Origin: a virus
Taxonomy: Duplodnaviria; Heunggongvirae; Uroviricota; Caudoviricetes
Length of the DNA: 28,068 nt
Direction: 5' to 3' (one strand)
Virus record (IMG/VR): IMGVR_UViG_2663762948_000001
Location: 1 to 28,068 of that record
Shown here: positions 484 through 27,445 of the stretch, piece by piece
How positions within the stretch are numbered: the stretch's first letter is position 1
Layout: each line of letters starts with the position of its first letter
Made by a program: the position numbers and the translations under genes
Notes under the pieces: generated by a model
The model's database searches: none
Told to the model about the DNA's origin: nothing
What the model saw: the letters and a program-made list of their open reading frames with translations, nothing else

Positions 484-494
484 GCTGCCCCCAT

Positions 495-517
495 AAAAAA
501 ACCACCCGTAGGTGGTT
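495..517 (-). terminator. Intrinsic terminator-like hairpin plus U-tract between the small membrane ORF and gene I
   Basis: Minus-strand RNA has stem AACCACC/GGUGGUU with loop UACG (517..500), followed by a U run (499..495), then the I start codon. Confidence 0.5.
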
Positions 518-532
518 TGTTAATTTACGCTC

Positions 533-757: not shown

Positions 758-804
758 ATCGTTCTCCTTGCCGTGTACTACACGATAGTATCAGTGACAG
801 TTTG

Positions 805-1515
805 TTAAATAAAATTCTGATGTCTAAGAATCTTCATCGTCCTTTCCTGCCAGTAGCCACCATACGGCACGCGTTGGCTCAGATGTCCGTACAGGTGGTG
901 CAGCAGCATATTGCCCTCCAGCAGAATTCCAGCGTGGTTCCACTTATCAGCCTGGACCTGCATGATCACCATATCGCCGGGTTTCGGTGGCCCGTCGAAT
1001 TCCCGGAATCCGCACTCATACCAGCAATCCTGATAGAAGTTGTCCGGATAGTCGTTTTCCCACCAGGGATAATCAACCCGGTAATCGTGGAGCTCGATAC
1101 CATGCGTTTGCCGGAAATAGCTCATTACCAGCCCCCAGCAGTCGAAGTGTCCAAGCACAAACGGACGCTCCAGCAGTGGCAGTTCTCCGCGCGGCTGGAT
1201 GGTGCGTAAATCCCCCTCCGGCCAGCTCACAATATGCCAGGGTAAAAGCGTTGCGTCGCATTGCGCTTTATCCAGTTCGCTCGGCTGCGTTGTGGCGTCA
1301 GGGTGACTGTGAACGATGGCGATCACCGTTCCCCAGTCCTCAGCAGCTGCGTAGTCTTCGGGGCAAAGGACAAAATTGTCCTCCGGCGCCGCGGCAAGAT
1401 TCCGGCACGGGAAATAACGTTCAACGCGGCTTTTCTGCGCCACCACGCCGCAACACTCAAGAGGATATTCAGCTGCAGCATGCGCCATAATCGCATCTAT
1501 GGTTTTCTGACGCAT
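805..1515 (-). CDS. K: Tail assembly protein K (JAB/MPN plus NlpC/P60-type)
   Basis: 236 aa; ECCG and HSHP motifs typical of JAB/MPN and a Cys/His C-terminal half; ATG start overlaps the L stop; position matches lambda K. Confidence 0.8.
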   Translation of the reverse strand: MRQKTIDAIMAHAAAEYPLECCGVVAQKSRVERYFPCRNLAAAPEDNFVLCPEDYAAAEDWGTVIAIVHSHPDATTQPSELDKAQCDATLLPWHIVSWPEGDLRTIQPRGELPLLERPFVLGHFDCWGLVMSYFRQTHGIELHDYRVDYPWWENDYPDNFYQDCWYECGFREFDGPPKPGDMVIMQVQADKWNHAGILLEGNMLLHHLYGHLSQRVPYGGYWQERTMKILRHQNFI

Positions 1516-1516
1516 A

Positions 1517-2275
1517 TCAACTCCTGATCAAAGACGTGCCCGGGAAGCCACCAAACGAGAGTTCGTTATTTTCGCCGAATCGGAGTTTGCAGGCCGTCAG
1601 CGTGCCATTGCATTCATCCAGCGACGGATCGCTTACCGGGTTGTTATTTTTATCGAAATAGCGGGTGCCGGCATAGTCGCAGCCGTCGCCGGTACGATAT
1701 TTATTCCGGATGCACCAGGTACACAGGGAATGAAGCTGTCGCGTCGGGATCATTTGCCCCTGCAGGTCCATCGGGCTGGACAGAACAAATTCAACGGTTT
1801 CACCGGCAAGCTCGCCAGTTTTCCCGTCGATATACCAGACCTGCAGCTTTTCCTGAGTCGGGTCTGCTGTGGGGTTGCCGTCCGCGAAATTTCTGGCATC
1901 GAGATATTTCTCTTTTGTGTCGTGAATAGTGACTTTCGCCTGCAGCAGATCGTCATACGCAAGACACATGGCAGAAATAGAGCTTTCGATGTTCGCAACC
2001 GTCAGTGATGGCGTTGCATTGCTCCCACTGGTTGATTTTTCCAGGCCTTCCAGCTGATACGGCCAGGCGGCGTATTCATTTCCCTGCCACCAGATTGGTT
2101 TCGCCGGAAGCTTGGACTCATCCCCACCAGCGGCGATGATTTCCGCTTCCGTGTGGGGAATGCGGTAATTGTGAAAGCGGAGAACGTCCGTTAGCCCAAA
2201 GGAAGAACCGTCCACCTCAATCAGACGAACATCGTTTCCGGATTCAAGCTTCTGATAGTCTGCGTTTAAGCTCAT
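1517..2275 (-). CDS. L: Minor tail protein L
   Basis: 252 aa with a C-terminal cysteine cluster (CTWC...C...C) typical of lambda gpL; ATGA overlap with M. Confidence 0.8.
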   Translation of the reverse strand: MSLNADYQKLESGNDVRLIEVDGSSFGLTDVLRFHNYRIPHTEAEIIAAGGDESKLPAKPIWWQGNEYAAWPYQLEGLEKSTSGSNATPSLTVANIESSISAMCLAYDDLLQAKVTIHDTKEKYLDARNFADGNPTADPTQEKLQVWYIDGKTGELAGETVEFVLSSPMDLQGQMIPTRQLHSLCTWCIRNKYRTGDGCDYAGTRYFDKNNNPVSDPSLDECNGTLTACKLRFGENNELSFGGFPGTSLIRS

Positions 2276-2610
2276 GGTTTAAATGCCTGGATGAATGTTG
2301 CTTCAAGGTTGAATTTTCCCGCACCCAGCCCGGTGGGTTTATACGTTTCGCAACGATACAAACCCAAAGGCTCGAGCGGCGGCTTCCATTGAAAGGCTTT
2401 CGTTCCTTCATGCCTGTCGAGAAAAGATTTAATGGCAGAAATGTAGGTTTCGTTGCCAGTGAAGTTGAGCGTCCATTGCTGGGTTCTGGTGTTCAATCCA
2501 TCCCCTGAAACCTGCTCATATCCATCGCCAAACTGTGCTTTCCTGACGCGGAAATTTATATCTGCCTCAGCGTTAAGTCGTGGGCACCAGGTGAAAGTTT
2601 CGATAGCCAT
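2272..2610 (-). CDS. M: Minor tail protein M
   Basis: 112 aa immediately downstream of the tape measure gene, the size and position of lambda gpM. Confidence 0.75.
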   Translation of the reverse strand: MAIETFTWCPRLNAEADINFRVRKAQFGDGYEQVSGDGLNTRTQQWTLNFTGNETYISAIKSFLDRHEGTKAFQWKPPLEPLGLYRCETYKPTGLGAGKFNLEATFIQAFKP

Positions 2611-2612
2611 TT

Positions 2613-5600
2613 TTATCGGGTTCCTTTCATTGCGTTCCAGATGTCACCGCCAGGGCGAATATCTCGCATGATGTTCTGCTTATATCGCTGATCAATATAT
2701 TTACCGACATCAGCACCAAATTGCTCAAGGCCGGGTGAAGTCTGCGTGGAAGTATTTCCGTTGCCATCGATGGTGATGTAAACCTGTGGAGCCGAAGATA
2801 CAGCCTGACCACCACCAGTGCCAACAGCCCGAACGCCAAGCGAACCATCAGCAGCACGGGTAAGCGGCATAATGGCTTCAGGTCCAGCCTCTGCAAACAC
2901 ACCCGCTCCTTTGGCAAAAGCAAAAAGCTGAGGGGTCTGAAACACGCCATTGCTGTATGCGCTCAGGGACGGAGAGTCGTAAACATTACCCTTCGCGTTA
3001 AAGGTGAAGTTCGCGCCAGCGTTCTGAATTGCAGTACCGCTACTGGCGGCAGCGGCGGAAGATGCGCCAAAGCTGAAGAGAGAACCAATTGAACTGACGC
3101 CGTTAGCAACAGCCATGTTCACCAGAACGTTCTGGATGATCTTCAGTACGCTCACGCCCCAGTCCTTCCAGCTGTCAACGTTGCCATTGAGCATGTCGGT
3201 GATCGTGGTGACCGCGCCACCCATGGCCTGCTTCATGCCGTCAGCGGCCATGGAAGAATAATCAGTAGCTTCGTCCACCCAGTTCGCATAACCCTCAGAC
3301 AGTCCCGTCATCCAGTCGTCACGCTGCGCATCAGAAGCTGCGTAATATCCCTCCTGGTCGCGCAGGCGCTCTTCGAGGTAGCGCTTATTAAGTGCCAGCC
3401 CCTGCTGATAGAACGTCTCGTCGATTTCACCAGCCTGACGCTGGCGGAGAAGATCGGTATTCTTCTGCTCAAACTCCTTACGCAGATTGAACTGCTCCTG
3501 AAGTCTTTCACGGAACCTGGTTCCCTGCCCGTAGCCCAGCAGTTGCGCTTCATTGGCTGCGCGGGCGCTGGCGTTACTGTCAGCAAGGTTGGCTTCGTAA
3601 TTTCGCAGTTGCTCACGCAATTTAACCTGATCGATGAGAGCAGCATTACGCATAACTTCGGCTTTCTGGGCCTGACTTAGCGTAGAAAGCTCACCCTGGC
3701 TTACCTGATATTTAACCTTTGCCAGCTCGGTATTCTGCCCTTGCAGAGCGATCTGCTCTTTTTGCTGCTTGATCAGCTTGTCATAGGTATCAGCTGTTTT
3801 TTCCGCCTCGGATTTTCCACCCTTATGGCGGCTTGAGTTACGAATTGCTTGTAATTGCCTGGCAGACTCAACTTCCATGCTGACATATTTCTCACGCCAA
3901 CCAGCTGGAAGGTTCAGATCAGATGCATCGAATTCTGCCTGCTTTCGAGCCTTATCCAAACCCTGAAGGCCAGATAACTCAAGCTGTCGCTGTGCTTTCT
4001 CAATAGCTTGTTGTTGCTTATTATCAAGCGCAGGAAGTACAGGTCCTGCATATTTTGGTGGGGACACTGCTGTAGACTGTCTGGAAACCTTGTTCAGCCG
4101 GTCATACATCTCTGTAAGAGAACTTACGGCGCCAGCCATTTCTACTGTTTTATTTATAGCCTGATCAGTTATGTCGTTTATTAACTGTTGTGTTTGCTTT
4201 CTTTTATTGAGCATTTGCTCAAGTCGGCCTTCTTCAACCGCAAGTTCTGAAGCAAAGTCTGCGGCTTTCTCAACCGCATCGTTATACAGCCATGTCCCCT
4301 CTGAAGCAGAATTGGCTGCTAATTTTGCGTTATAAAGTTGATTGGATAATTCAGCAACTTTCTGCTTCTGCTGTTCAATCGCACTATTCTGAGCATCCAG
4401 TGAAATATTCGCCTGTCCAAGGTTGGCGGATATCTGCGTCTGAGACATTGATTTCAGATTATCTCGTACCTGCTCGATTGTGTCCGCATATTGGATTGCA
4501 GATTCCCTGGCTTGTTCTTGGCGTTGATACATCGTGTACCACGCCCCAGCACCCAACATTAAAATTCCTGGCAAACCACCAACTAACGACAAAAGACCCG
4601 TAGCGCCAGTTTTTACAAGCCCCAGCACTGATGTTGCAGAGTTAAGTGCCTGCTGAGAGGCTGCAACGGCTCTGTTTGACTGTACCAGTGCCGCATTTGC
4701 TGTAATCATTGCCCGGCGCTTGGATATGGCATTTTGAGTGGCAGTAGCCTCAGCATTAGTATTCTTTGCCAGCACAAGTTCTGACTGAGCAAGCTGGTAA
4801 GCTCGCTCAGCAGCAATAGCATCGGCGGCGGCCTTGCGTTGTGATTGGGTAGCAGATTCAGCCCTTGCAGCTGCGAGCGCAATTTCGTTCTTTCTGGCAT
4901 CTATTAATTGCGCCGTCTGGTTCCCAAGATCGCCAAACATCCCTCCAAGATAGCGAGCTCCACCTATCGCAGCCAAAGCTCCGGCAGCCGTAGCCACAGT
5001 GTCTATATTGTCAGAAACCGTATTCAATACGGCAACAAGAGTACTTGTCGCACCAGTGGCTTCATTAGCGCCACCTACCCATGCCATGAAAGCATTTTCG
5101 ACTTTCGTCGTGGCAGCAGAAACGGTCTGCGGCATTGCCTCAAATTCACCACGCATAGTGCCAAGTTGACTTATCAGGGCCGGGACAACTTTATCTGCGG
5201 TTAGCATCCCCTGATCGGCCATTGCCTTCAGATCTTTACGAGCTACACCCATCCCTGCGGCAAGAGCACGGATAACTCGATCACCGTTTTCGTTGACGGA
5301 GTTAAATTCCTCGCCTCGAAGAACACCCTGCGCCAGAGCCTGGCTGAACTGCGTGATTACCGAACTCGCTTCAGACGCGCTTGCGCCTGACAGCTTAAGC
5401 CCTGTTGATATAGCCTCGGTTACCTTCAGAACCTCTTCTGAACTGTAGCCATATTCACGCATAGAAGCGGCTGAACGCGCAAAAAGACTCGCATTATCAG
5501 AGAAGGCGGTTCCGGTTCGCTGGCTAATATCCATCAGCGCCCGCTGGGACTCCGTGAAATCATCTGACGACTGGGAAGCCTGCTTTAGCCTGGCATTAAC

Positions 5601-5891
5601 AGAGCTCCATTCATCGGCCAGCGATATAAGATGACCAGTCGCAAATGCTCCAGCAAATGCACCAGCCATTCCCAGTGCTGAGGCCTTCGCGGTGTTTATT
5701 TGACTAGTTACCTCAGCCAAGGCACGCTGAGTTTCACGCGAAGCTGCGGCCGATTGGCGTCCTCCAGTCTGCATTACCCGGTAATAGTCATTCCCCATTC
5801 TTGAAGCACGAGAAATTTCAGACTGGAATGACTGAGAGTTTGCAGATATTTTGATGATCAGTTCGCGCAACGTAGCCATATTTTCACCCAT
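2613..5891 (-). CDS. H: Tail tape measure protein
   Basis: 1092 aa, Ala/Gln-rich coiled-coil, low-complexity, longest ORF in the tail cluster, located between G/GT and M. Confidence 0.9.
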   Translation of the reverse strand: MGENMATLRELIIKISANSQSFQSEISRASRMGNDYYRVMQTGGRQSAAASRETQRALAEVTSQINTAKASALGMAGAFAGAFATGHLISLADEWSSVNARLKQASQSSDDFTESQRALMDISQRTGTAFSDNASLFARSAASMREYGYSSEEVLKVTEAISTGLKLSGASASEASSVITQFSQALAQGVLRGEEFNSVNENGDRVIRALAAGMGVARKDLKAMADQGMLTADKVVPALISQLGTMRGEFEAMPQTVSAATTKVENAFMAWVGGANEATGATSTLVAVLNTVSDNIDTVATAAGALAAIGGARYLGGMFGDLGNQTAQLIDARKNEIALAAARAESATQSQRKAAADAIAAERAYQLAQSELVLAKNTNAEATATQNAISKRRAMITANAALVQSNRAVAASQQALNSATSVLGLVKTGATGLLSLVGGLPGILMLGAGAWYTMYQRQEQARESAIQYADTIEQVRDNLKSMSQTQISANLGQANISLDAQNSAIEQQKQKVAELSNQLYNAKLAANSASEGTWLYNDAVEKAADFASELAVEEGRLEQMLNKRKQTQQLINDITDQAINKTVEMAGAVSSLTEMYDRLNKVSRQSTAVSPPKYAGPVLPALDNKQQQAIEKAQRQLELSGLQGLDKARKQAEFDASDLNLPAGWREKYVSMEVESARQLQAIRNSSRHKGGKSEAEKTADTYDKLIKQQKEQIALQGQNTELAKVKYQVSQGELSTLSQAQKAEVMRNAALIDQVKLREQLRNYEANLADSNASARAANEAQLLGYGQGTRFRERLQEQFNLRKEFEQKNTDLLRQRQAGEIDETFYQQGLALNKRYLEERLRDQEGYYAASDAQRDDWMTGLSEGYANWVDEATDYSSMAADGMKQAMGGAVTTITDMLNGNVDSWKDWGVSVLKIIQNVLVNMAVANGVSSIGSLFSFGASSAAAASSGTAIQNAGANFTFNAKGNVYDSPSLSAYSNGVFQTPQLFAFAKGAGVFAEAGPEAIMPLTRAADGSLGVRAVGTGGGQAVSSAPQVYITIDGNGNTSTQTSPGLEQFGADVGKYIDQRYKQNIMRDIRPGGDIWNAMKGTR

Positions 5892-5914
5892 AAAAAAACC
5901 CGCTTGATAGCGGG
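5892..5914 (-). terminator. Intrinsic terminator-like hairpin plus U7 directly upstream of the tape measure start codon
   Basis: Minus-strand RNA has stem CCCGC/GCGGG with loop UAUCAA (5914..5899), then UUUUUUU (5898..5892), then AUG at 5891. Confidence 0.5.
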
Positions 5915-5921
5915 TCGTGAG

Positions 5922-6110
5922 TTATAAACTGTCTTTTCTTTGGTGAGCGACTTGTATTAATAAATCTATTTGCGCATCTTGCTTTTTATTTATCTCTTTA
6001 AGGGCTTCAACTTGTTCATTTGCCCTTGTGCTAAACCGTAATAAATAAAAAATCACAATTAGATTTATCAGCCAGCCGAATATTCCAAACACTACTACCA
6101 GTGGTTCCAT
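5922..6110 (-). CDS. Small single-pass membrane protein, moron between G/GT and tape measure (the position of HK97 gp15)
   Basis: 62 aa; N-terminal TM helix, then a charged tail; AAGGAGG RBS upstream of ATG 6110..6108; followed by its own terminator. Confidence 0.7.
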   Translation of the reverse strand: MEPLVVVFGIFGWLINLIVIFYLLRFSTRANEQVEALKEINKKQDAQIDLLIQVAHQRKDSL

Positions 6111-6167
6111 AACGCCTCCTTTACTTAAGGAAAGAGCGTATCGCTACATTGAAGGCATGTGAAGCAA

Positions 6168-6478
6168 TTATTGTGTCGCAGCTGTAAGTGCCGCCTCAAG
6201 CCCTGCAAACGGGTCCTTCGGTTCTGATTGCTCATCACCACCCCAGCGCAGGATCGCATCGTCCAGCGGTACTTTTGCCCCCTGCGAGCCGTAGATGGCA
6301 GAGACAATCTGCGCTGCATGGATATCACCGCGAATATCGCCAACCGGGCTTTGCCTGTCGTACTCAATCCACATCAGAAGCTCGCTTGCCGTCATATTCT
6401 GCCGAAGCTCTGAGAGCGTGCGCCCCATCCGGAGCGCAAGCGACATCAGAAACTTTACGCCGGGGGTTGAGACTTTTC
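6168..6478 (-). CDS. T: T-frame part of the tail assembly chaperone GT (made by -1 frameshift from G)
   Basis: This frame is -1 relative to G and is open from the GGGAAAAG site down to the stop at 6168; product contains MTASELLMWIEY... Confidence 0.7.
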
Positions 6479-6841
6479 CCGCGCTTCGTCCGCATTGTTG
6501 ATCAGGTCAAGCGCCTGTTTGAGCAGACGTGAGTGCACGGGCCCGTAAATTTCACGCACCTGCTCTTCTTCGTCTACGCTGAATACCGGTTGCTTATCGG
6601 TGTCACACAGAACGTCAATGAAGAGCACCACGTCAGCGCAAAGATTACGGTGCGCCTTTTCCGATACCGACACATTTTCATCGTCGCCCCCCCCTTTCAC
6701 CACCTCCTGCCAGCGCAGCCAGGCTTCACCTGACGGCTCACGGAGAACCACTTTGACACCTTCCCACTCAGGGACAACGACCGTCTTATGGCGAAAGCCA
6801 GCCATTTTCGCCATGGCTAATTGTTTTAAAGTTTGCGACAT
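6455..6841 (-). CDS. G: Tail assembly chaperone G
   Basis: 128 aa between the major tail gene and the T frame; acidic C-terminal region; overlaps the T frame. Confidence 0.8.
   Translation of the reverse strand: MSQTLKQLAMAKMAGFRHKTVVVPEWEGVKVVLREPSGEAWLRWQEVVKGGGDDENVSVSEKAHRNLCADVVLFIDVLCDTDKQPVFSVDEEEQVREIYGPVHSRLLKQALDLINNADEAREKSQPPA
6473..6481 (-). promoter_or_regulatory. Candidate programmed -1 ribosomal frameshift site (G to GT)
   Basis: Minus strand reads CGGGAAAAG; the G frame decodes CGG GAA AAG, the -1 frame decodes GGA AAA and stays open into T. Lambda uses GGGAAAG at the equivalent place (from memory). Confidence 0.55.
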
Positions 6842-6875
6842 CGCTTATCCATGCCGGGACAACCCGGCATCTCCA

Positions 6876-7580
6876 TTAACTGATAGTAAGGGTGCAGGCA
6901 GCTGAGGTAACCGTTTTGACCGGAGAAGAAGAATCCGTAACCACACAGGTGTAATCACCTGCATCACCTGAAACTGCGGTGGCTTTATTAAAGGTATCGG
7001 ATGTCTGCCCGCTGACGGTGCTACCTGCCTTCTTCCAGGTGTAGGCATACGGAGGCTTACCACCGGCAGCTACTACAGCCATGCTGATCGCAGCCCCCAC
7101 CGCTACAGACAGTGAGGAAGGAAGATCAGTGGTCAGTTTAAGTACAGAGTCAATCTGGACAGGCTTGCCTTTAAGGCGCAGTGAGAATGTAGCTGCCACA
7201 ACACCATTGGTACCAGATGACCAGGTATGCTGGCGAACTTCGGCCAGGAACTTAAAACCATTACCTGACGGGAAGATGATCTGGAAGCCGTAAGTGGTGT
7301 CGTTGTCATACGCATCACGCAAGGCGTCCTGCGCTGGATTATTGTAGAAGTTGCCGGACAGAGAGATTTCTGACGGAGAAGGCAGGCCGTTGATGTTCTC
7401 CTGCTCGGTAGAGCAAAGTGTTGTTACGTCGATATCCTGCTTCTGGCCACCAGTGAACTGAATTTCTTTGATGGTGCAACTCAGATCGAGAAAGGTGGCG
7501 GAATCCATCGTTTCTTTGGTGGACGGCAGGGAGGAAATAAGGATCTTCGTCAGCTGCGATTTTTCATAAAGTGCAGACAT
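6876..7580 (-). CDS. V: Major tail protein with C-terminal Ig-like domain
   Basis: 234 aa; C-terminus has a Big_2-like pattern (YTWKK...GDAGDYTCVVTD); sits upstream of G/GT. Confidence 0.8.
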   Translation of the reverse strand: MSALYEKSQLTKILISSLPSTKETMDSATFLDLSCTIKEIQFTGGQKQDIDVTTLCSTEQENINGLPSPSEISLSGNFYNNPAQDALRDAYDNDTTYGFQIIFPSGNGFKFLAEVRQHTWSSGTNGVVAATFSLRLKGKPVQIDSVLKLTTDLPSSLSVAVGAAISMAVVAAGGKPPYAYTWKKAGSTVSGQTSDTFNKATAVSGDAGDYTCVVTDSSSPVKTVTSAACTLTIS

Positions 7581-7639
7581 AGCTGTCTCCTGGAAAAAGA
7601 AAACCCGCCATCTGGCGGGTTCGTTGGGTGAATTAATTG

Positions 7640-7987
7640 TCAGGGGGTAACTTTAAAATCCAGGGTGGCACGGTAGAGCCGATAATCTGGCTCGTACCCG
7701 GGGATTTTTACCACCTCTGTAGGGGTTAACGGCTCAAGCGAAGCGAGCACCAAATCTCTCAGGGATCGTGATTCAGCGATCGAAGTGGAATACACATCGA
7801 CCTGAACGGAAACCCTGCTCTCTGCCTGACCACACAGCACGTCAGCGGAAACATCATCGACGATGGAAAAGATAATCCAGGGTGGAGAGACAGACGGTTT
7901 ACCGTCACTACCTAATGGCGCAACATAGGGATATACCCGTCCTTCTGCCAGGGGAGAAAGCAAGGCGTAGATATTATCTTCATTCAC
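7640..7987 (-). CDS. Tail completion / tail terminator-like protein
   Basis: 115 aa between the head-tail joining genes and the major tail gene; GTG start overlaps the upstream stop (GTGA). Family assignment is by position only. Confidence 0.55.
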   Translation of the reverse strand: MNEDNIYALLSPLAEGRVYPYVAPLGSDGKPSVSPPWIIFSIVDDVSADVLCGQAESRVSVQVDVYSTSIAESRSLRDLVLASLEPLTPTEVVKIPGYEPDYRLYRATLDFKVTP

Positions 7988-8433
7988 TTGCTCAATACCT
8001 CATCAATAGCCTGATTCATCCTGGCAATGGCGACGCTGGCGGCCTCTTCCTCGCGAGTATCGTAAGCGGGTCGCACAAACGGATGTGCAGGCATGTTCGC
8101 GGTTCCCATTTCAACGAATCGCCAGTAAAAGGCGTTTCTCGGGTTCTTCGCCTTCATCGTGTTATCGCTGTTGCCGGTGCGCGGGTTAACGCCACGAATA
8201 TGGACGCCGGAAGAAATTTCCCCGCGGCGACGGCTTTTTTGGGTCACCACCACCACGTTTTTTTTCAGTTTCCCGGTACGCACCGGAGCGCGGGCGATCA
8301 CCTCTTCCTTAAGCACTTCGGCACCGGCGCGCGTGGCATCACGCAGAACCTTGTTATTTTCAGCGCGGCTAAGCGCCTCCAGATCCTTTGCGATGTCATT
8401 TAACCCGGAAAAATCGAGGCTCGTCTCAATCAT
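7984..8433 (-). CDS. Head-tail joining protein (HK97 gp10-like family)
   Basis: 149 aa, translationally coupled (ATGA overlap); contains HPFVRPA resembling the gp10-family motif. Confidence 0.6.
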   Translation of the reverse strand: MIETSLDFSGLNDIAKDLEALSRAENNKVLRDATRAGAEVLKEEVIARAPVRTGKLKKNVVVVTQKSRRRGEISSGVHIRGVNPRTGNSDNTMKAKNPRNAFYWRFVEMGTANMPAHPFVRPAYDTREEEAASVAIARMNQAIDEVLSK

Positions 8434-8768
8434 TTTTCAGCTCCCGTTTTGCAAAGAATTTCCAGGCGAGTGCCGGTCGCATTTGCTACAGGAGGACCGA
8501 TGATATTTAGCACCTGACCTTTATACGGGCCGCTGAGCACTTCCAGACGAGAAGAGGCATTCAGCTCTGACCTGAAGCGCATCCAGACGCGAATGGTTGC
8601 CTGCGCCGTTTCCGCGCCGCCTGAAAGCTGCTCTCTGCCGCTGATCCCCTTTACCTCAGCCGGGACCGGGTTGCCACCAGTCCACGATTCAACCGGCTGA
8701 CCAGATGGATCGCGCGAAGTCGTGAAGGTGAGAATTTTTACCCTGTGCCTGAATCGTCCAGGTTCCAT
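8430..8768 (-). CDS. Head-tail adaptor / head closure protein
   Basis: 112 aa starting MEPGRFRHRV, typical of phage head-tail joining proteins; coupled to neighbours. Confidence 0.6.
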   Translation of the reverse strand: MEPGRFRHRVKILTFTTSRDPSGQPVESWTGGNPVPAEVKGISGREQLSGGAETAQATIRVWMRFRSELNASSRLEVLSGPYKGQVLNIIGPPVANATGTRLEILCKTGAEK

Positions 8769-9094
8769 CAGGAGCCCTCCTCAGGTTCAGATTTACCGCG
8801 CCAGTTGCGATGAATGAACATCATGCGTTCGGCGGCTGCATTCTCATAAAGCTGCACTTCGCTTTGTGCCGTCCGGTGTTCAAACATGTCAGCAAAGACA
8901 AGCAGAACGGCGCCCTTAACGGCGGCAGGAATATCAGCCGCAACCTTCCATGCTGGTTCATCGCACCAGCGCATGCAGTAGTCAAAAGCGGCCTGGGCGT
9001 ACAGCGTGATCAGCTCGTCCCTGTCGTCTTCCTCAAACTCAATCTGCTGCTTAAACAGACTGAGGGGAATTACATCCAGAACATCTATCGCCAT
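8768..9094 (-). CDS. gp6-like head-tail connector protein
   Basis: 108 aa acidic protein immediately downstream of the major capsid gene. Confidence 0.6.
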   Translation of the reverse strand: MAIDVLDVIPLSLFKQQIEFEEDDRDELITLYAQAAFDYCMRWCDEPAWKVAADIPAAVKGAVLLVFADMFEHRTAQSEVQLYENAAAERMMFIHRNWRGKSEPEEGS

Positions 9095-9130
9095 ACGTTA
9101 AAAGGGCGGGTTTCCCCGCCCCCTCCATCA

Positions 9131-10285
9131 TTAGTCAGCAGAGAAGGTGCCCTTGATGATTGCTGTCGGGCGATAATGCGCCAGCGCCAGACGCTCTTCG
9201 CACAGGATGGTCAGCATGTTTTTCACGAAGTTATCGCGGTCTTCACGGCTAACTTCCACGGTGGCATCCATGCGATCCCAGACCTGTGAGGCCATATCGA
9301 AACCGCCTACGGTAAAGGTGCCGACGGCCTGCGCCTTAGTCGGAACCACTGGCAAGCCCCACATGATGTTACTGGTGAATGCCTGAGGACCACCGAAGAT
9401 ATAGCGGCCTTCATTGTCTTTCAGCAACGCGATGTTGTGCCAGTCGCGCGGGTTCAGGACGATACCGGAAGCGCTGAACTCAGACTCGGTCACCTGATAA
9501 ATAGCGTGAGCGATAATGTCAGCGCGGGTGTCGCCGGTGGCATTCAGCGAGGTGTCATAGGCGGTTGCCACTTTGTTCAGCCCTTCCAGGTTATCCCCGG
9601 TACCGTCGCCGTTCAGCAGCTGGCCCTCTTCCTTCAGTGCCAGGCCGTACATGAGGCGGTTGTTAATGTAGGACTGAAGCATTGGCGCATCATCCATCAC
9701 CTGACGTGATGCCTGCACCCAGTGCGCGATGGTCTTCACGTTCGCGGTTTGTTTGCTGAAGGTGATATCCGATTCTGGCTTCAGTGCTTTCTCTGCCACC
9801 ACGTCGGCGTTATTGGTAAACACCTCTTCACGCACATATTCCAGAGCGTTACTGGAAGTGCGGCCCTGAGACAGCAGATCACGAATGGTAAGACGGCGCA
9901 GGCCTGGCATGATGATGCCTGGGATCTGCATAGGCTGGATCAGTGAGCCAGCCGAACCAGCGTCACTGCCTAGTGACTTGTTAAACGTTTTAGCGCCAAA
10001 GGTGCCCTGTTTACCGTCCCATGACTTAATAAGCTCTTCAGCAGCCCGTTCAGAGAAGGATTTCTTCTCACCAGGATTCTCAGCGCCGGATGCCAGTTTC
10101 TGTTCCAGATCGAAGAGGCGAGCGCCGGATTTGGTCAGCTCTTCCTGTACTTTCATCAGGTCGGACTGCAACTGTTTGGAAACCTGGCCTGTGCTTTCGA
10201 TTTCTGCTTTCTGCGCATCGAAAAGCTGGGTCATTTTCTGCTGGGATTCTTCGATAGCTTTTTGAATGAGAGCGAGTTCAGACAT
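9131..10285 (-). CDS. Major capsid protein, HK97 family
   Basis: 384 aa downstream of the protease; N-terminal coiled-coil delta-like region, then a capsid-fold-sized body. Confidence 0.85.
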   Translation of the reverse strand: MSELALIQKAIEESQQKMTQLFDAQKAEIESTGQVSKQLQSDLMKVQEELTKSGARLFDLEQKLASGAENPGEKKSFSERAAEELIKSWDGKQGTFGAKTFNKSLGSDAGSAGSLIQPMQIPGIIMPGLRRLTIRDLLSQGRTSSNALEYVREEVFTNNADVVAEKALKPESDITFSKQTANVKTIAHWVQASRQVMDDAPMLQSYINNRLMYGLALKEEGQLLNGDGTGDNLEGLNKVATAYDTSLNATGDTRADIIAHAIYQVTESEFSASGIVLNPRDWHNIALLKDNEGRYIFGGPQAFTSNIMWGLPVVPTKAQAVGTFTVGGFDMASQVWDRMDATVEVSREDRDNFVKNMLTILCEERLALAHYRPTAIIKGTFSAD

Positions 10286-10287
10286 AA

Positions 10288-10977
10288 TTATTTACCTAAG
10301 TTAGAAGGGAAAGATTTGATGCTCTGAAGCAGAGCGTTTATTTGTGCTTCGTTTCCGTCGCCCTCGGACTCGCTCCGAATCGCTGACTTAAACCGGGCTA
10401 TTAGCCCAACTGCCTGTGATTTGGTGAGGCCGACTGAATCCCTCAGCCAGTTCTCCACATCACGAATCGTTTCAATGCCATCGACACTTTTCATGGCTGC
10501 GATGCCAGCCTGTTCGTTGGCGGGGAAAGTGCAGACGCTGATTTCGCGCAGAGCCTGGATATTCTTAAAAATGCGGCCTGTTGGAATGATGGTGTAATCG
10601 TCTTTCGAAACGGAAAAGCCAACCGACATACCTTCAACCGTACCGTGCTGCATTGCCGCTTTTAGGTCAGCGGCGCCGCTGTGTCCTGGGGTAAGTTGAC
10701 CGCGCACATACAGGCCTTTTTCGTCCTCAGCCAGGCTGTCCCATTTGCCAACCGGCAGTTCCCACGTCCTGTGGTTAAAAAACATCGCCACTTTTCGGGT
10801 CTGGTTCGCCAGCGCGTTTTTAAACGCCCCGGGCAGAATGATGTCGCCATCGGAATCGGTGTTATTAAAAACAGAGGCGTAGCCTTCAAAAATCCCCTGT
10901 TTACCGTCACCGGTGAATTTGATTTCTGTCTCGTCGAAGGACAGCGTTTTTACGATTTCAGGCATTACGGCCCCCAT
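10288..10977 (-). CDS. Prohead protease, HK97 family
   Basis: 229 aa between portal and major capsid genes; start is ATG 10977..10975. Confidence 0.8.
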   Translation of the reverse strand: MGAVMPEIVKTLSFDETEIKFTGDGKQGIFEGYASVFNNTDSDGDIILPGAFKNALANQTRKVAMFFNHRTWELPVGKWDSLAEDEKGLYVRGQLTPGHSGAADLKAAMQHGTVEGMSVGFSVSKDDYTIIPTGRIFKNIQALREISVCTFPANEQAGIAAMKSVDGIETIRDVENWLRDSVGLTKSQAVGLIARFKSAIRSESEGDGNEAQINALLQSIKSFPSNLGK

Positions 10978-10982
10978 AAAAA

Positions 10983-12257
10983 TTAAGCCCCGTTATTACG
11001 GGGCTCTTTGTTGGTTCCTAAATCGGTGATCGGCACGTATTGCGACTGGCGCATTGCCACATCGCCACCCGGCAATGGCGGGAGGTTGTCCGTTCGTCGC
11101 ATCTCGTTGATGGTGCGTAGCCCTGCCTCTCCCATTGCCTTCATAAAGGCAGCGCGGGATGCCGAATCGCCCCTCAGCAGGCCGTCGAGGTTGTGCTCAG
11201 CATGAATGCGGCCAACATCCTTAGCAGGAATAAGCCACCGCTGAATGCTGTTTTCCCACCTGGAGATATAGGGCTGCAGGGTGTACTGCAGGAAGCCGAG
11301 ATTCTGCTGCTCGATGCCCGATCCCCAGCTCGTTGATTTCTCGACGTCGCCGACAAGGTGAGGCGGTACGCCAAAGAATCGCGCCAGTTCACTTACCTGA
11401 AATTTTCGGGACGCCATCATTTCGGCATCCTGCGGAGTTACGCCAATTGCCGATGTAGAAAAACCCGCTTCCAGAATCCAGAGGCGTTTTTTTACCGGGC
11501 CGCCGGCGATCTCTTTGAAGTTCTCTTCGACCTGGGAGCGCTGCTGTTCAGTTAGCACTTTTTCGCCAGTTGAGAGGATTTGCGGAGACTTGGCGCCGTT
11601 GGCAAAGAAATCTCGCTGCTGGTCCTCCATCGCAACTGCCACACCTGCCGATTTACAGGCAAAAGCAATGGGTGACAGGCCTACAAGCCCGGTGAATCCG
11701 AAGCCTTTAAGGTGAAAAATCTCTTTCTGCGAAAAGTCGGCGTATTCGCTGTCGCGTTGATAGCGATAAACCACTTTTTTTCCGACTAGTTTCACATCCA
11801 TATTGGCAGACTGAAGCGGGAGAAGGCTGATCACGTCACCTGCGCTGTTGCGGTCCACAAGTGCATATGCGTTACCGTAGAAACAGAGCTGCATCGTCAT
11901 GGCCTCCCTGAATTCTTGGGCGGTCATGTACTGATTCGGCGAGTAGCGCAGCAGTCGCGCCAGTGGATTGCTCAAATCCACTTTTTTACGGTTGTCATTC
12001 TGGTCTGTTTCGAAGACATCAAGCGGTAAGCATGCCGTGAGCGTTGAAATCAGGCTCACGCAGCGCCACACAGTCGAAATTTGCAGTATCCGTTCATCGT
12101 TAATGGATGAATCGCCCAGGTGTCCGTGGGCCGAAACAGGCCCCGTCTGTGAGCCCTGATTTGGGGTGACTAAACGCCCGCCGACAAACCAGGACTGCAG
12201 CCTTGCCCACCAGCCGTTATTGGTTCGCAGGTCAATCGTGTATTTAGGTTCTTCCAT
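10983..12257 (-). CDS. Portal protein
   Basis: About 424 aa; ATG at 12257..12255 overlaps the large terminase stop by 1 nt; the ORF track's first codon at 12260 is GTG. Confidence 0.85.
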   Translation of the reverse strand: MEEPKYTIDLRTNNGWWARLQSWFVGGRLVTPNQGSQTGPVSAHGHLGDSSINDERILQISTVWRCVSLISTLTACLPLDVFETDQNDNRKKVDLSNPLARLLRYSPNQYMTAQEFREAMTMQLCFYGNAYALVDRNSAGDVISLLPLQSANMDVKLVGKKVVYRYQRDSEYADFSQKEIFHLKGFGFTGLVGLSPIAFACKSAGVAVAMEDQQRDFFANGAKSPQILSTGEKVLTEQQRSQVEENFKEIAGGPVKKRLWILEAGFSTSAIGVTPQDAEMMASRKFQVSELARFFGVPPHLVGDVEKSTSWGSGIEQQNLGFLQYTLQPYISRWENSIQRWLIPAKDVGRIHAEHNLDGLLRGDSASRAAFMKAMGEAGLRTINEMRRTDNLPPLPGGDVAMRQSQYVPITDLGTNKEPRNNGA

Positions 12258-13771
12258 CACATGCTCAGCGGTCGGAAAATGAAGTCGTCGAAGTCACCAC
12301 CCTGTTCGGTAACTTCCCCATTAGCAGCACCAACGGACATTGTCATTGCGACCATGCCATCAATACGGCCCGTTGCTTTGGATTTATCGAGCTTGCGGTT
12401 GCCAGCAGCATCTTTCACCACCACCGCATTCACAGCACACATCGTTAATACTGGGTGCATGCCATGCCTTACGCGCCCGTTAAGCATCAGAGACTCCAGC
12501 GTGTCTACAGCTGGCCCCATATCCTTAAAGCCCTGGCCGAACTCGACCAGCGGGAGGCTCAGCCCAATGGCATCGGCATCCTTCCTGAACTGGTCAATGC
12601 GCCAGCGGTCAAAAGCCATCGAGGTAAGGTCGAAATCACCGATAATTTCAGCTATATCCGCAACGACGAATGAGTAATCCACCGAAGCTCCTGGCGTGGT
12701 GCGCAGCAGCCCCTCCCTCACCCAAACGTCATAGGGTGCTCGGTCCGTTTTGGTTCGCTCTTCAAGAGTCTTTTGCGGTGTCCAGAAGAAGGGGAAAACA
12801 TCCCAGACACCATCATCTGCTTCACCAGCGATAACCAGCGCCGTTAAGTCGTTCCTGGCTGACAGATCCAGCCCCGCGTACCACTTCCTCGGGGTGTTAA
12901 TCGGCATCTCTCCGCAAAGCTCCCACACGCTGCGGGAGATAAACGGCGATACGGTAGACACGCGCTGATTGAGGTTGAGGTTTCGGAAGGTGTTTTCGAA
13001 GCTTGGCATTCGGCAAGCTTTCTCAGCCTGGCGCGCCATGTCTTTTTCTGACCTGAATGTTCCCAGTGCCGGGTTCGCAGCCAGCCAGGACTCGCGTTTA
13101 CTGATATCAGCGTCTTTTGGCGCTTCATAAACGTGGCACACGATGTGCGGATCTTTCGATTTGACCGCATCATCAATCCAGATGCTAAGCAGGTCAGCAT
13201 CGTTTGCTGCCTGCGTACTGATAACGATTAGCAGCGGGTTTTCATGAGCCCCCTGCGCCGTAGTTATTGCATCGATAAAATCATCCTGCGGGCCCCTAAC
13301 CTGCCCTGTTTCATCGAGAATGGCCAGAATGGGGGAAAGGCCGTGCGTCGTCTTACCTTCTGCGGATAAAGCCTTGTATTCGACGTTACACGGCAGGCCG
13401 ATCAGCTTTTTGCCGCTGGGCGTAATGTGCACAATCTCCTGCAGCTTGGGGTTCAGGTTAACCATCTTCACCGCGAGGTTAAAAACGATGGCCGCCTGTT
13501 CCCGGCTGAGTGCACCGCTGACAATCTGCGTGTTCTGCACCGCTTCAGGCCCCACCAGGTGAGCCAGCAGAATTCCGGCAATCAGGCCAGTCTTACCATT
13601 TTTTCGGGCGATGCTGAGGATCGCCATATCCGTTCCGGCTGGATTGTCGTAAACCGCCAGGATGAAATCTTTCTGAAAGGGGTCCAACCGCATAGGTTGG
13701 CCGATAAGCTTGCCTTCTGGCACGATGCAAAAGCGCTCAATGAACGCTATTACACGCTCACCTCGCGTCAT
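12257..13771 (-). CDS. Terminase large subunit
   Basis: 504 aa; N-terminal ATPase region with a Walker A-like SIARKNGKT, C-terminal nuclease-sized region; precedes portal. Confidence 0.9.
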   Translation of the reverse strand: MTRGERVIAFIERFCIVPEGKLIGQPMRLDPFQKDFILAVYDNPAGTDMAILSIARKNGKTGLIAGILLAHLVGPEAVQNTQIVSGALSREQAAIVFNLAVKMVNLNPKLQEIVHITPSGKKLIGLPCNVEYKALSAEGKTTHGLSPILAILDETGQVRGPQDDFIDAITTAQGAHENPLLIVISTQAANDADLLSIWIDDAVKSKDPHIVCHVYEAPKDADISKRESWLAANPALGTFRSEKDMARQAEKACRMPSFENTFRNLNLNQRVSTVSPFISRSVWELCGEMPINTPRKWYAGLDLSARNDLTALVIAGEADDGVWDVFPFFWTPQKTLEERTKTDRAPYDVWVREGLLRTTPGASVDYSFVVADIAEIIGDFDLTSMAFDRWRIDQFRKDADAIGLSLPLVEFGQGFKDMGPAVDTLESLMLNGRVRHGMHPVLTMCAVNAVVVKDAAGNRKLDKSKATGRIDGMVAMTMSVGAANGEVTEQGGDFDDFIFRPLSM

Positions 13772-13777
13772 AGTCTT

Positions 13778-14263
13778 TTATCCGTGCTTGGGAAAGGCGA
13801 TCAGGTTGTCGTCCTGGTCCTGATGCTCGTTTTTGGTATTCCGTGCATCACGATCGTTCTGATTACGTTTCTTCTGGTCGCGACTTTCGCCGTTGGTTGC
13901 GTGGGAGTGGATCTGGAGGTCGCGGCGCTGAGCCAGGATAGTTCGTTGTAGCTCAACAATCTGCTTGCGTAGGTCTTTGATAAGCCCTTCGTCGCGGCCC
14001 TCTCCGCGAATTCGCTCTTCTTTGCGTAAATCCTTGCGTAAAACGGTGATATAGAGCTGATTATTAGCAAGTTCTACGGCGGCTAGCAGGTCGGCAGGCG
14101 TCCAGCTGTCCAGAGCTTTCGATCTGATATTGTCATGCCAGAATGGTTCGGCTTTTTTCTCCAAACCTGCATGGGACGGCGGATCGATGGTGTCCACAGC
14201 TGCATTTTTCATGGCCTGAACCGCTGCCGCCGAACTGTCGGAACGGATTCGTTTATCTGCCAT
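13778..14263 (-). CDS. Terminase small subunit
   Basis: 161 aa, highly charged C-terminus, immediately upstream of the large terminase. Confidence 0.7.
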   Translation of the reverse strand: MADKRIRSDSSAAAVQAMKNAAVDTIDPPSHAGLEKKAEPFWHDNIRSKALDSWTPADLLAAVELANNQLYITVLRKDLRKEERIRGEGRDEGLIKDLRKQIVELQRTILAQRRDLQIHSHATNGESRDQKKRNQNDRDARNTKNEHQDQDDNLIAFPKHG

Positions 14264-14319
14264 ATGTCAACACCTTAAAACTAAAAAAATCGGGTTAGCG
14301 TTAAATTCAAACTTTGGCG

Positions 14320-24810: not shown

Positions 24811-25089
24811 TCAGGCCTCGAAGAATTCGCCGTTCTTCGGGGCTTTTTCTTTTGTCAGCATTCTGGCTACTTTCTTAGCCAGTTCCGCCAACTCCTCGTC
24901 TTCAACACCCCATTCAAGAACAGCAAGAAGCATTCCCATTTTGGGGATGAAGCTGTCTTTCCATCGCGAAATTTGCGATTCATTAATCCCTAACGCGTCG
25001 GCAACCTTTCGCTGACCACGTACAGCAATTCGATTCAGGATGTTGCTTGTAATTGCATTCGCTTTCTTGCGAGTACTTGTAAGTTGCAT
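24811..25089 (-). CDS. cII: Transcriptional activator cII
   Basis: 92 aa with ...ESQISRWKDSFIPKMGMLLAVLEWGVEDEEL..., closely resembling the lambda cII core; AAGGAAAT RBS. Confidence 0.8.
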   Translation of the reverse strand: MQLTSTRKKANAITSNILNRIAVRGQRKVADALGINESQISRWKDSFIPKMGMLLAVLEWGVEDEELAELAKKVARMLTKEKAPKNGEFFEA

Positions 25090-25122
25090 ATGTAAGTATT
25101 TCCTTAACTAATAAGAAGTTAT

Positions 25123-25140
25123 GCGCATCAACTTATGCGC
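25123..25140 (-). terminator. tR1-like hairpin between nutR and cII
   Basis: Minus-strand RNA GCGCAU-AAGUUG-AUGCGC followed by a moderately U-rich stretch. Confidence 0.35.
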
Positions 25141-25146
25141 GTTGTA

Positions 25147-25190
25147 TTCCCGCATTTCGGCGGGAATGAGGACCATGACTGTTAAAGAGC
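25147..25190 (-). promoter_or_regulatory. nutR (boxA plus boxB)
   Basis: Minus strand has boxA GCTCTTTAAC, a spacer, then boxB hairpin TCCCGCCGAAATGCGGGAA; the same boxA/boxB pair occurs at nutL. Confidence 0.6.
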
Positions 25191-25197
25191 GGTGTTA

Positions 25198-25392
25198 CTA
25201 TTTGTTTTTCTTGTTGCTTGGGAAAGGACGAACTTCCTCTCCAATCACACTGCCATCAGGCTTTACCGTAACCATAATGTTACGGCCTGCCAGAATGGCC
25301 TTGCTGATAGCGCACTGGATTACACCAAAGTCACTGGCTGCTTTAGCCTGTCCATGGATTTTGGCGTAATCGGCAAGTGTCATTCGAATCAT
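25198..25392 (-). CDS. cro: Cro repressor
   Basis: Start [15 protein letters not shown] at ATG 25392 (the ORF track start at 25398 is GTG); ...[17 protein letters not shown]...PFPSNKK resembles lambda Cro. Confidence 0.8.
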
Positions 25393-25421
25393 ATGCACTC
25401 TCCGTTATTAACCATGAACAA

Positions 25422-25488
25422 AGAATACTACAGGTATTCAAAGCAATCAATACTCAGGGTATTTTTAGTTTAAGTACCTTAGCTATTA
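25422..25488. promoter_or_regulatory. OR operator cluster with divergent pR and pRM
   Basis: 17-bp palindromes GAATAC-TACAG-GTATTC (25423..25439) and CAATAC-TCAGG-GTATTT (25448..25464), plus a degenerate third site (25472..25488). Minus-strand pR is TTGATT (25450..25445), 17 nt, TATTCT (25427..25422). Plus-strand pRM -10 TAGAAT (25487..25492) sits 6 nt before the cI ATG, implying a leaderless cI mRNA. Confidence 0.55.
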
Positions 25489-25498
25489 GAATTAAGCT

Positions 25499-26215
25499 AT
25501 GGAAAATAAAAAATCACTGACGACAGAACAGCTCGAAGACGCTAAGCGGCTTAAGGCTTTGTATGAGTCAAAAAAGAAAGAATTGGGAATAACCCAATAC
25601 TCAATCGCTGATGAACTGGGTATCACCCAAGGAGCGGTAGGGCATTATCTTAATGGCAGAAACGCGCTAAACGTTGAGGTCGCATCTGGTTTTGCACGTT
25701 TGTTGCAAGTCTCAATTGCTGATTTTAGCCAGTCAATTGCTGCCAAGGTTGCAGAACAGGCAGAAAGCCTTAAGAGCGATGCCAACGTAAGGTATGCAGG
25801 GGAATACAGAGCAGGAAAGAGGTATCCGGTGTTAAGCAGTATCCAGGCTGGCTCGTGGTGTGAAGCATGCGAACCATACACCATTAAAGACATAGATGTT
25901 TGGCTTGAGTCTGACGCGCATATTCAAGGTAATGCGTTCTGGCTTAAAGTGGAAGGTGATTCAATGACGGCACCGGTTGGGTTAAGCATTCCAGAGGGAA
26001 CATTCGTTCTTTTCGATACCGGAAGGGAGGCGATCAACGGCAGCTTGGTCATAGCAAAACTTTCTGACTCTAACGAAGCAACATTCAAGAAGCTGATAAT
26101 CGACGGCGGAAATAAATACCTCAAGGGACTTAATCCTGCATGGCCTCTCGTGCCAATCAATGGAAACTGCAAGATTATAGGCGTTGCAATTGAGACAAAA
26201 CTAAGGCTGGTTTGA
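25499..26215 (+). CDS. cI: cI repressor (HTH plus LexA-like S24 autopeptidase domain)
   Basis: 238 aa; N-terminal ...LTTEQLEDAKRLKALYESKKKELGITQ... resembles lambda cI; C-terminal domain has the Ser/Lys dyad context (...GDSM...FKKL...). Confidence 0.85.
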   Translation: MENKKSLTTEQLEDAKRLKALYESKKKELGITQYSIADELGITQGAVGHYLNGRNALNVEVASGFARLLQVSIADFSQSIAAKVAEQAESLKSDANVRYAGEYRAGKRYPVLSSIQAGSWCEACEPYTIKDIDVWLESDAHIQGNAFWLKVEGDSMTAPVGLSIPEGTFVLFDTGREAINGSLVIAKLSDSNEATFKKLIIDGGNKYLKGLNPAWPLVPINGNCKIIGVAIETKLRLV

Positions 26216-26232
26216 TCACGCAAGGGGCGATT

Positions 26233-26601
26233 ATGGTTGGAACCGCTATAGCAAGCTTTTTTGGGATGTTGGCAATCTCGACAATTTACGGCTTAGCGCA
26301 TGCTTTTATTGCGAAATCTCTATCAGAAAAAATAAGCCAGGCTTGGGCGCATAGATCAGCTCGTTTCATGATTCTGGTGATCATAGCAATACAAGGGATA
26401 TCTGCATTTATCCTCTATGGATCAAGCTTATACCTATTGTATCAAGGCGCGACATTTACGCCTTACACCAGTGATTACGGAACTCTATACGATGGTAGTG
26501 AAGACATCACTGTGGCTTGGATCGTCTTTGGTTTATCTATGGCCGTGTCTGTTGTAGCAGACATCATTAAGGTAATTCTCGTCTTAACCTTCGCTGACTA
26601 A
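26233..26601 (+). CDS. 3-TM membrane protein co-transcribed with cI (rex position)
   Basis: AAGGGG RBS 5 nt before ATG 26233 (the ORF track start at 26212 is TTG); 122 aa with three hydrophobic helices; begins 18 nt after the cI stop. Confidence 0.55.
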   Translation: MVGTAIASFFGMLAISTIYGLAHAFIAKSLSEKISQAWAHRSARFMILVIIAIQGISAFILYGSSLYLLYQGATFTPYTSDYGTLYDGSEDITVAWIVFGLSMAVSVVADIIKVILVLTFAD

Positions 26602-26731
26602 CCTATAATCCCGGCAGCAATAGCTATCGGGATCCACTTCACATATCCCGCATAAAAAGCACTGAACAAGCAGAAACCGAAAAAATAAATATCCTTTGTA
26701 TTCATTTGCTTATCATTATTTCATCAAAAAT

Positions 26732-26774
26732 AAATACCTTGGGTATTTACACAATAAAATACCTACAGTATTCT
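26732..26774 (+). promoter_or_regulatory. OL operators with pL
   Basis: AAATAC-CTTGG-GTATTT (26732..26748) and AAATAC-CTACA-GTATTC (26757..26773), same half-sites and 25-bp spacing as OR; candidate pL -35 TTTACA (26746..26751) and -10 TATTCT (26769..26774). Confidence 0.5.
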
Positions 26775-26819
26775 TTAGCCATCAGCAGGACGCTGGTAGC
26801 CAAACGGAACAGATTGGCA

Positions 26820-26862
26820 GGCTCTTTAACATTGATGGGATTGTCCCGCCGAAATGCGGGAA
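26820..26862 (+). promoter_or_regulatory. nutL (boxA plus boxB)
   Basis: GCTCTTTAAC, a spacer, then TCCCGCCGAAATGCGGGAA, identical in boxA and boxB to the nutR element on the other strand. Confidence 0.6.
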
Positions 26863-27172
26863 CCAAAGAGTAGTTGGCTTTGGGGTGACGTGAAGTGCAG
26901 CTGCACGACGGCAACCGGAAGATAAGCACCCGGCGCGTCACCGCCAAAGTCAATTCCATAGGCGAAATGCAGCCGCCAAACACAGCCAATGCTGCACATG
27001 CAACAGGAGGATTTATGTGAATGCATAACTTCAAAACCGAGGTTAATTAAATCTCTCGATCCGAGCATTGACCTATTAGGTGGCGAGATGCTCTTTCTGC
27101 CCCTCAGTTCGAGGGGCCAGAAACCACTTTGCAATCACTATCAATTCCAAAGTTGTTTCATCGGAGGTCAAC

Positions 27173-27445
27173 ATGACAGTAGTCATTACATATCTGGCTG
27201 ACGATAACGCCAGAAATCGCCGCAGAGCACGCAGACAGGCTCAACGTGAACAGGCAATGCAAGAGCAGCGACTGACGCGAAAAATTGCGCTAAAGCTCTC
27301 TGGTTGCGTCAGAGCAGATAAAGCAGCATCACTCGGAAGCCTTCGCTGTAAGGAAGAAGATGAACGCAGTGGAAGTATTTGCCTGCCAAACGTAGCTCTT
27401 TACGCGGCAGGATACCGGAAATCAAAACAACTGACAGCGAGGTAA
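27173..27445 (+). CDS. N: Antiterminator N
   Basis: GGAGG RBS; ATG 27173 is the first in-frame ATG; 90 aa with N-terminal arginine-rich motif DDNARNRRRARRQAQREQA like lambdoid N proteins. Confidence 0.7.
   Translation: MTVVITYLADDNARNRRRARRQAQREQAMQEQRLTRKIALKLSGCVRADKAASLGSLRCKEEDERSGSICLPNVALYAAGYRKSKQLTAR

Follow-up and report, generated by a model that had tools for sequence, protein, structure and literature searches.

HK620-type cI/Cro operators of the form AATAC-N5-GTATT and a predicted leaderless cI start in the immunity region of a lambdoid phage with HK97/mEpX1-like structural genes

The window, that is, the whole 28,068-base stretch of DNA that was analysed, carries the divergent regulatory genes of a lambda-type switch: cro on the minus strand and cI, the gene of an S24-type HTH repressor, on the plus strand. 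These genes are separated by a gap of 106 bp in which operators sit. Past cro, the minus strand encodes cII, the replication protein O and a DnaB-type helicase, and the genes are arranged as is usual for lambdoid immunity regions, with the window running opposite to the conventional map. The relevant features are the following (operators are given without a strand):

25198 to 25392, minus strand: cro, encoding a Cro protein of 64 amino acids (Pfam Cro, PF09048, 3.6e-26; lambda-Cro fold family; recognition helix QCAISKAIL)
25415 to 25450, minus strand: promoter pR, driving cro (TTGATT at 25450-25445, 17 nt, TATTCT at 25427-25422; predicted start near 25415)
25423 to 25439: OR1, 17 bp, GAATACTACAGGTATTC, an exact match to the motif; the OR1 annotated in HK620 (positions 1824-1840 of the HK620 locus, L001); overlaps the -10 of pR
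25448 to 25464: OR2, 17 bp, CAATACTCAGGGTATTT, an exact match; the OR2 annotated in HK620; lies over the -35 of pR and directly adjoins that of pRM
25464 to 25499, plus strand: candidate promoter pRM (-35 TTTAGT at 25464-25469, 17 nt, -10 TAGAAT at 25487-25492, then the 6 nt TAAGCT and the cI ATG)
25472 to 25488: OR3, weak, 17 bp, AAGTACCTTAGCTATTA, two mismatches; the OR3 annotated in HK620
25499 to 26215, plus strand: cI, encoding a repressor of 238 amino acids (Pfam HTH_3 and Peptidase_S24; recognition helix QGAVGHYLNG)
26687 to 26703: proposed OL3, AAATATCCTTTGTATTC, one mismatch; 45 bp from OL2
26732 to 26748: OL2, AAATACCTTGGGTATTT, an exact match; the OL2 annotated in HK620; overlaps the -35 of pL
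26746 to 26781, plus strand: promoter pL, driving N (TTTACA, 17 nt, TATTCT); same span as the pL annotated in HK620
26757 to 26773: OL1, AAATACCTACAGTATTC, an exact match; the OL1 annotated in HK620; overlaps the -10 of pL
27173 to 27445, plus strand: N, encoding an antiterminator of 90 amino acids (Pfam N_peptide, 5e-16); first gene of the pL operon

The Cro protein is identical to that of phage HK620 in all 64 residues and shares 63% of its residues with lambda Cro. The cI repressor matches HK620 cI in 237 of 238 residues, the sole difference (A66T) being located outside the recognition helix, and it is 43% identical to lambda cI; its top match among solved structures is the lambda repressor (3bdn). 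When the protein is aligned with lambda cI, the positions required for cleavage and catalysis (Ala-Gly, Ser, Lys) are found in invariant columns, and Asp38, a positive-control residue in lambda, is invariant as well. Directly after cI, at the position of rexAB in lambda, lies an ORF of 129 amino acids (26212-26601, plus strand) that is a homologue of HK620 hkaS; a Pfam search with this ORF gave no match, and it is presumably co-expressed with cI from the prophage. A search of Rfam across the window produced no match anywhere.

In its exact form, the sequence AATAC-N5-GTATT occurs four times in the window (starts at 25424, 25449, 26733 and 26758), against an expectation of 0.03, and none of 100 shuffles reached this number. 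Two of these sites form a pair in the cro-cI gap and two a pair upstream of N, and the centres are 25 bp apart within both pairs; the four strong 17-bp sites with common half-sites and 25-bp spacing that an earlier note on this DNA had reported are thus real. The same note had recognized a degenerate third OR site next to pRM. The core of this site, AGTACCTTAGCTATT (AGTAC-CTTAG-CTATT; 25473-25487), deviates from the motif at two positions and is located 24 bp from OR2. Sites with up to two mismatches are common in the window (15 against 7.9 expected), and the score of OR3 taken alone is not significant; hence, the assignment of this operator depends on its position and on homology, both of which speak for it, since its homologues in the relatives described below carry a single mismatch and are found about 26 nt before the cI ATG (those of OR1 and OR2 are found about 74 and 50 nt before it). 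In the window, the centres of OR3, OR2 and OR1 lie 19, 43 and 68 nt upstream of the cI ATG, respectively.

The promoters were recognized with different ease. A stock promoter scan calls pL (TTTACA-17-TATTCT at 26746-26774), but neither pR nor pRM; both were obtained with a separate, looser hexamer scan, and they were missed by the stock scan because their score of 8 out of 12 is below its threshold. The span of pR is that of the pR annotated in HK620. The -35 of the candidate pRM is weak, matching the consensus at three of six positions, and OR3 overlaps the spacer and the first bases of its -10 hexamer. Three tandem palindromic operators are found over pR/pRM and a second cluster over pL, with OR2 and OL2 on the -35 and OR1 and OL1 on the -10 of pR and pL, respectively. 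This is the lambda pattern, and it agrees with the earlier assignment of the motif to OR and OL and with a lambda-like cI/Cro switch.

A megablast search of 25100-27200 against phage records revealed near-identical immunity regions in HK140, mEpX2, HK620, HK630, HF4s, phi296/phi367 and two Stx2c phages. Positions 25380-25520 of the window, which include the cro-cI intergenic region, are 100% identical to HK620 (AF335538), as are OL1, OL2 and pL; positions of the HK620 locus were transferred by an ungapped alignment in which the window position equals the locus position plus 23599. The genome of coliphage HK620 was reportedly described by Clark et al. in 2001 (J Mol Biol 311:657), and the GenBank record of that year already annotates the 17-mers discussed here as OR1, OR2, OR3, OL1 and OL2, and it marks pR and pL as well. 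The operators are therefore known, and the observation made from the sequence of the window is correct but ordinary; the comparison with known lambdoid immunity groups that had been proposed as a check of the operator consensus leads directly to HK620. The window shares with the HK620 immunity group both the DNA-binding domain of cI and Cro on the one hand, and the OR and OL operators on the other; given the identical OR region and Cro, and a cI protein that agrees in 237 of 238 residues, we assign HK620 immunity to it. Among 5,426 complete E. coli genomes, 146 carry this immunity module, in each case on the chromosome (408 nt, with at least 95% identity in all but one).

A sensitive DNA search uncovered three more distant relatives, Hafnia phage Pocitis76, Serratia phage vB_SspS_OS31 and Erwinia phage vB_EhrS_49, at approximately 70-73% nucleotide identity. 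Each of these phages possesses three AATAC-type OR sites with distances of 23-25 bp, and two or three sites at OL, none of which is annotated as an operator in the corresponding records. Relative to the window, the half-site bases of the three phages are 89% identical, while the central five bases are 47% and the inter-site spacers 58% identical. In addition, the N-terminal domain of cI was used to scan genomes, one for each species, and 33 prophage loci of other Enterobacterales were retrieved, among them loci of Serratia, Yersinia, Pectobacterium, Pantoea, Tatumella, Proteus, Morganella and Photorhabdus. Within the 81 bp upstream of cI, these 33 loci contain 74 sites that deviate from the motif at no more than one position, clustered at -74, -50 and -26, whereas no such site was found in 79 kb on the cro side or in the first 700 nt of cI. 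The cI helix of all 33 loci is QGAVGHYLNG or closely resembles it. Since the peptide patterns used for the retrieval of the loci included this helix, the comparison demonstrates that the sites accompany the helix, not the reverse. A subgroup of loci (L020, L021, L026, L030, L031 and L035) encodes variant cI proteins, e.g., with RNPLN or RIPLN after the helix, or with QSAVGHY, and in this subgroup the half-sites TATAC, AAAAC or CAAAC are paired with GTATT; it may represent a drifting sub-specificity.

A published recognition code for Cro proteins relates Gln at helix position H1 to A+2, Ala at H3 to A+5 and Lys at H6 to C+6 of the operator half-site (Hall, Roberts and Cordes, PMC6649833). When applied to the helix QCAISK, this code predicts a half-site of the type xAxxAC, in agreement with the (n)AATAC found here in the numbering of the 17-bp operator.

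The searchable literature yielded no experimental data on the HK620 repressor or its operators, be it on binding, footprints, immunity or mapped transcripts, a search that did not extend to the 2001 genome paper, and the operators are therefore sequence-based predictions, in the HK620 record as well as here. This leaves some room for a reading in which the palindromes are chance repeats, or sites for a host protein or for another phage protein, rather than targets of cI and Cro. We regard it as exceedingly improbable, as four exact sites occur where 0.03 are expected, as these sites are placed precisely over pR, pRM and pL and conform to the Cro recognition code, and as they accompany one particular cI recognition helix throughout the family, while the rest of the loci is free of them.

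We are highly confident that the window represents a lambdoid phage, or a prophage, in which HK97/mEpX1-like structural genes are combined with HK620 immunity, and that AATAC-N5-GTATT is the operator sequence shared by its cI and Cro proteins. OR1 and OR2 cover pR, and OL1 and OL2 cover pL, so that both early operons would be silenced by cI dimers occupying these sites. By analogy with lambda, a cI dimer at OR2, an operator centred 43 nt upstream of the cI ATG and located beside the weak -35 of pRM, would probably activate this promoter, and the position of OR3 over pRM would allow Cro, as well as excess cI, to repress it. The homology with lambda likewise suggests that cI and Cro would bind these sites, cI cooperatively, that Cro would follow a lambda-like order of preference among them, and that the cI maintenance transcript would have its 5' end where the lambda transcript has it.

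The arrangement of pRM deserves separate consideration. It had been proposed that the -10 hexamer TAGAAT places the start of transcription at or beside the cI ATG, and the geometry is indeed as described: the hexamer (25487-25492) is followed by 6 nt, and a start 7 nt after it falls on the A of the ATG (25499), so that pRM would produce a leaderless maintenance mRNA as in lambda. The lambda cI mRNA made from pRM is leaderless (PMC10491246). TAGAAT-TAAGCT-ATG in the window and TAGATT-TAACGT-ATG in lambda have the same succession of -10 hexamer, six nucleotides and ATG, and in 31 of 35 distinct loci, a count taken from the per-locus listings, the cI ATG is preceded at a distance of 5-7 nt by a -10-like hexamer (TAGAAT, TACAAT, TAAAAT, TACTAT, TAATAT or TTAAAT), with the bases in between varying freely. 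No Shine-Dalgarno sequence precedes the cI ATG of the window, which is directly preceded by TAAGCT, and across the family a Shine-Dalgarno-like tetramer is present upstream of cI in only 2 of 35 loci, in comparison with 21 of 30 upstream of cro.

The four exceptions to this geometry are Morganella prophages (L029, L033, L034 and L037), in which the hexamer is only about 3 nt away from the ATG. These loci possess a consensus TTGACA approximately 40 nt upstream of cI (near-consensus in L033) along with the same cI helix and AATAC-type sites, and the pRM arrangement may differ in the Morganella lineage. Not every member of the family, therefore, has the leaderless arrangement.

We infer, with good support from the lambda precedent and from the conserved geometry, that the cI maintenance transcript is leaderless. 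One might instead accept the operators as described and assume that this transcript starts somewhat upstream, by anything from a few nucleotides to tens of them, or at another promoter, and is translated in some other way. The poor -35 of pRM would fit such a scheme, as would the deviating geometry of the Morganella relatives and the existence of other weak plus-strand hexamer pairs, e.g., TTCAAA-17-TATTTT with a predicted start near 25472, and the leaderless start is here a prediction from the sequence. We nevertheless consider it unlikely: the distance between the -10 and the ATG is that of lambda, where a leaderless start is established, it is conserved in the great majority of the loci although the intervening bases vary, cI differs from cro in having no upstream Shine-Dalgarno motif, and the alternative start near 25472 lies inside OR3 and has no conserved support. 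A leaderless maintenance transcript is compatible with a second, leadered cI transcript. From lambda and from the pRE annotated in HK620 (approximately 25066-25105 in the window), an establishment transcript of cI, carrying a leader of some 390 nt, is also to be expected; a long leader, which the earlier note would have taken as evidence against a leaderless start, would therefore bear on that start only if it were found on the maintenance transcript of a lysogen.

At OL, two sites had been counted initially. Both stand as strong operators, but the count itself is probably too low, as a third site is likely to be present. The core of the proposed OL3, AATATCCTTTGTATT (26688-26702), has one mismatch, i.e., nine of its ten half-site bases match. 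Seven relatives possess a site at the same offset, 70 bp from OL1, with a perfect match in two of them, and because the sequence further upstream is unrelated in the seven, the conserved module can be taken to end on this side with the distal site. Among 58 HK620-type OL haplotypes, the segment 26687-26703 shows a single, rare substitution, which is located within the central five bases.

The HK620 record places OL3 elsewhere, at 26710-26726, 22 bp from OL2, and it annotates tIMM over 26683-26713, so that the palindrome at 26688-26702 might be fortuitous or a part of tIMM. A spacing of 21 bp between OL3 and OL2 does exist in some relatives (Erwinia phage 49, L010, L012, L013, L019 and L022). 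However, only four of the ten half-site bases match at 26710-26726, as read from the sequence, and four positions of this segment vary among the 58 haplotypes, one of them commonly. We therefore set aside the annotated position as poorly supported, and consider it distinctly improbable that OL3 resides there; to judge from the sequence comparisons, the third OL site is probably that at 26687-26703, which matches far better, varies in the population merely by the rare central-base change, and is retained in the seven relatives despite their unrelated upstream flank.

The distance between OL3 and OL2 differs by lineage and amounts to 21, 30 or 45 bp. On a wider reading, to which we give even weight for and against, OL3 of the HK620-type switch is at 26687-26703, and the operator AATAC-N5-GTATT and the helix QGAVGHYLNG define a single, broadly distributed immunity-specificity class of the Enterobacterales, with a conserved leaderless cI and a variable OL3 position. 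If this is true, the variable position of OL3 could alter the long-range looping between OL and OR and the negative autoregulation.

An ORF for a hydrophobic peptide of 35 amino acids, MNTKDIYFFGFCLFSAFYAGYVKWIPIAIAAGIIG (26705 to 26598, minus strand), begins beside the distal OL site, runs towards the ORF upstream of that site and overlaps its stop codon. We rejected this ORF as a conserved gene: relatives with the same distal site either lack it or encode unrelated peptides, and it is, for this reason, probably not a gene.

The structural block of the window (1-14312) is 98-99% identical to HK97, HK75, HK633 and mEpX1. The window thus represents an HK97-like siphovirus equipped with the immunity module of HK620, a P22-like podovirus, and provides a clear case of module exchange. 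The remark in the earlier note on mosaicism was right, as the HK97/mEpX1-like structural half is combined with a lambda-type Q, holin S and Rz and with HK620 immunity; these lysis and Q proteins belong to lambda-type families and stand beside an immunity that is not that of lambda.

The leader of the pL operon shows two further peculiarities. Between nutL and N, a segment of 203 bp (26955-27157) is present that is also found in HK140 and is absent from HK620 and phi296. It contains a boxA-like sequence, TGCTCTTTC, followed by a 7-bp GC stem-loop (GCCCCUC-AGUUC-GAGGGGC, approximately 27099-27117), and a folding energy of -19.7 kcal/mol (z = -2.4) was calculated for the 46 nt of 27080-27125; the segment could be a second nut-like site or the remnant of the N leader of another phage. 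The nutL region itself (26821-26862) matches the HK620 nutR (L001 1548-1591) in inverted orientation with 82% identity over 44 nt, a likeness that is consistent with a pair of sites recognised by one N protein.

In practical terms, the HK620-like immunity type predicts which phages a lysogen will exclude. The module is also present in some Stx2c phages. Beyond correct annotation, the significance of the finding is small. In our view, the family comparison is a modest resource, as it brings together naturally diverged operators that belong to a single repressor specificity and corrects the position of OL3, and it lends comparative support to the conservation of leaderless repressor mRNAs in this lambda-related lineage.

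Among the known systems, HK620 is the closest with regard to immunity. It has a P22-like backbone, whereas the structural genes of the window are those of an HK97/mEpX1-like siphovirus; it lacks the 203-bp segment between nutL and N; and its record gives OL3 at 26710-26726 and no pRM, while OL3 is proposed here at 26687-26703. The more distant relatives (Erwinia phage 49, Pocitis76, OS31, and the prophages of Pantoea, Yersinia, Tatumella, Proteus and other genera) have the same cI helix and the same or nearly the same Cro helix as the window, and they agree with it in the operator family, the spacing of the sites and the geometry of pRM. They differ from it in the N-terminal domain of cI, for which the protein identity is only approximately 60-74%, and in the central bases and the spacers of the operators.

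With lambda, the window has in common the divergent genes for cI (HTH plus S24) and a lambda-fold Cro, the three 17-bp OR operators with a central base pair, whose centres are positioned 19, 43 and 68 nt before cI here and 19, 42 and 66 nt in annotated lambda, the two strong operators over pL, and a -10 hexamer that ends 6 nt before a cI ATG lacking a Shine-Dalgarno motif. The positions A2, A5 and C6 of the half-site are common to both as well. The specificity, however, is not that of lambda, as had been suggested from the operator sequence: the half-site reads AATAC here and TATCAC in lambda, with AT instead of TC at positions 3-4 and a different flanking base, and no AATAC-type site was found in the lambda immunity region. 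The recognition helices differ between the window and lambda, both in cI (QGAVGHYLNG against QSGVGALFNG) and in Cro (QCAISKAIL against QSAINKAIH, with differing residues at H2, H5 and H9). The layout of the region differs, too. The distance between OL1 and OR1 is about 1.33 kb in the window and about 2.41 kb in lambda, the 129-amino-acid ORF takes the place of rexAB, and the likely OL3 is situated 45 bp from OL2, in comparison with 20 bp in lambda.
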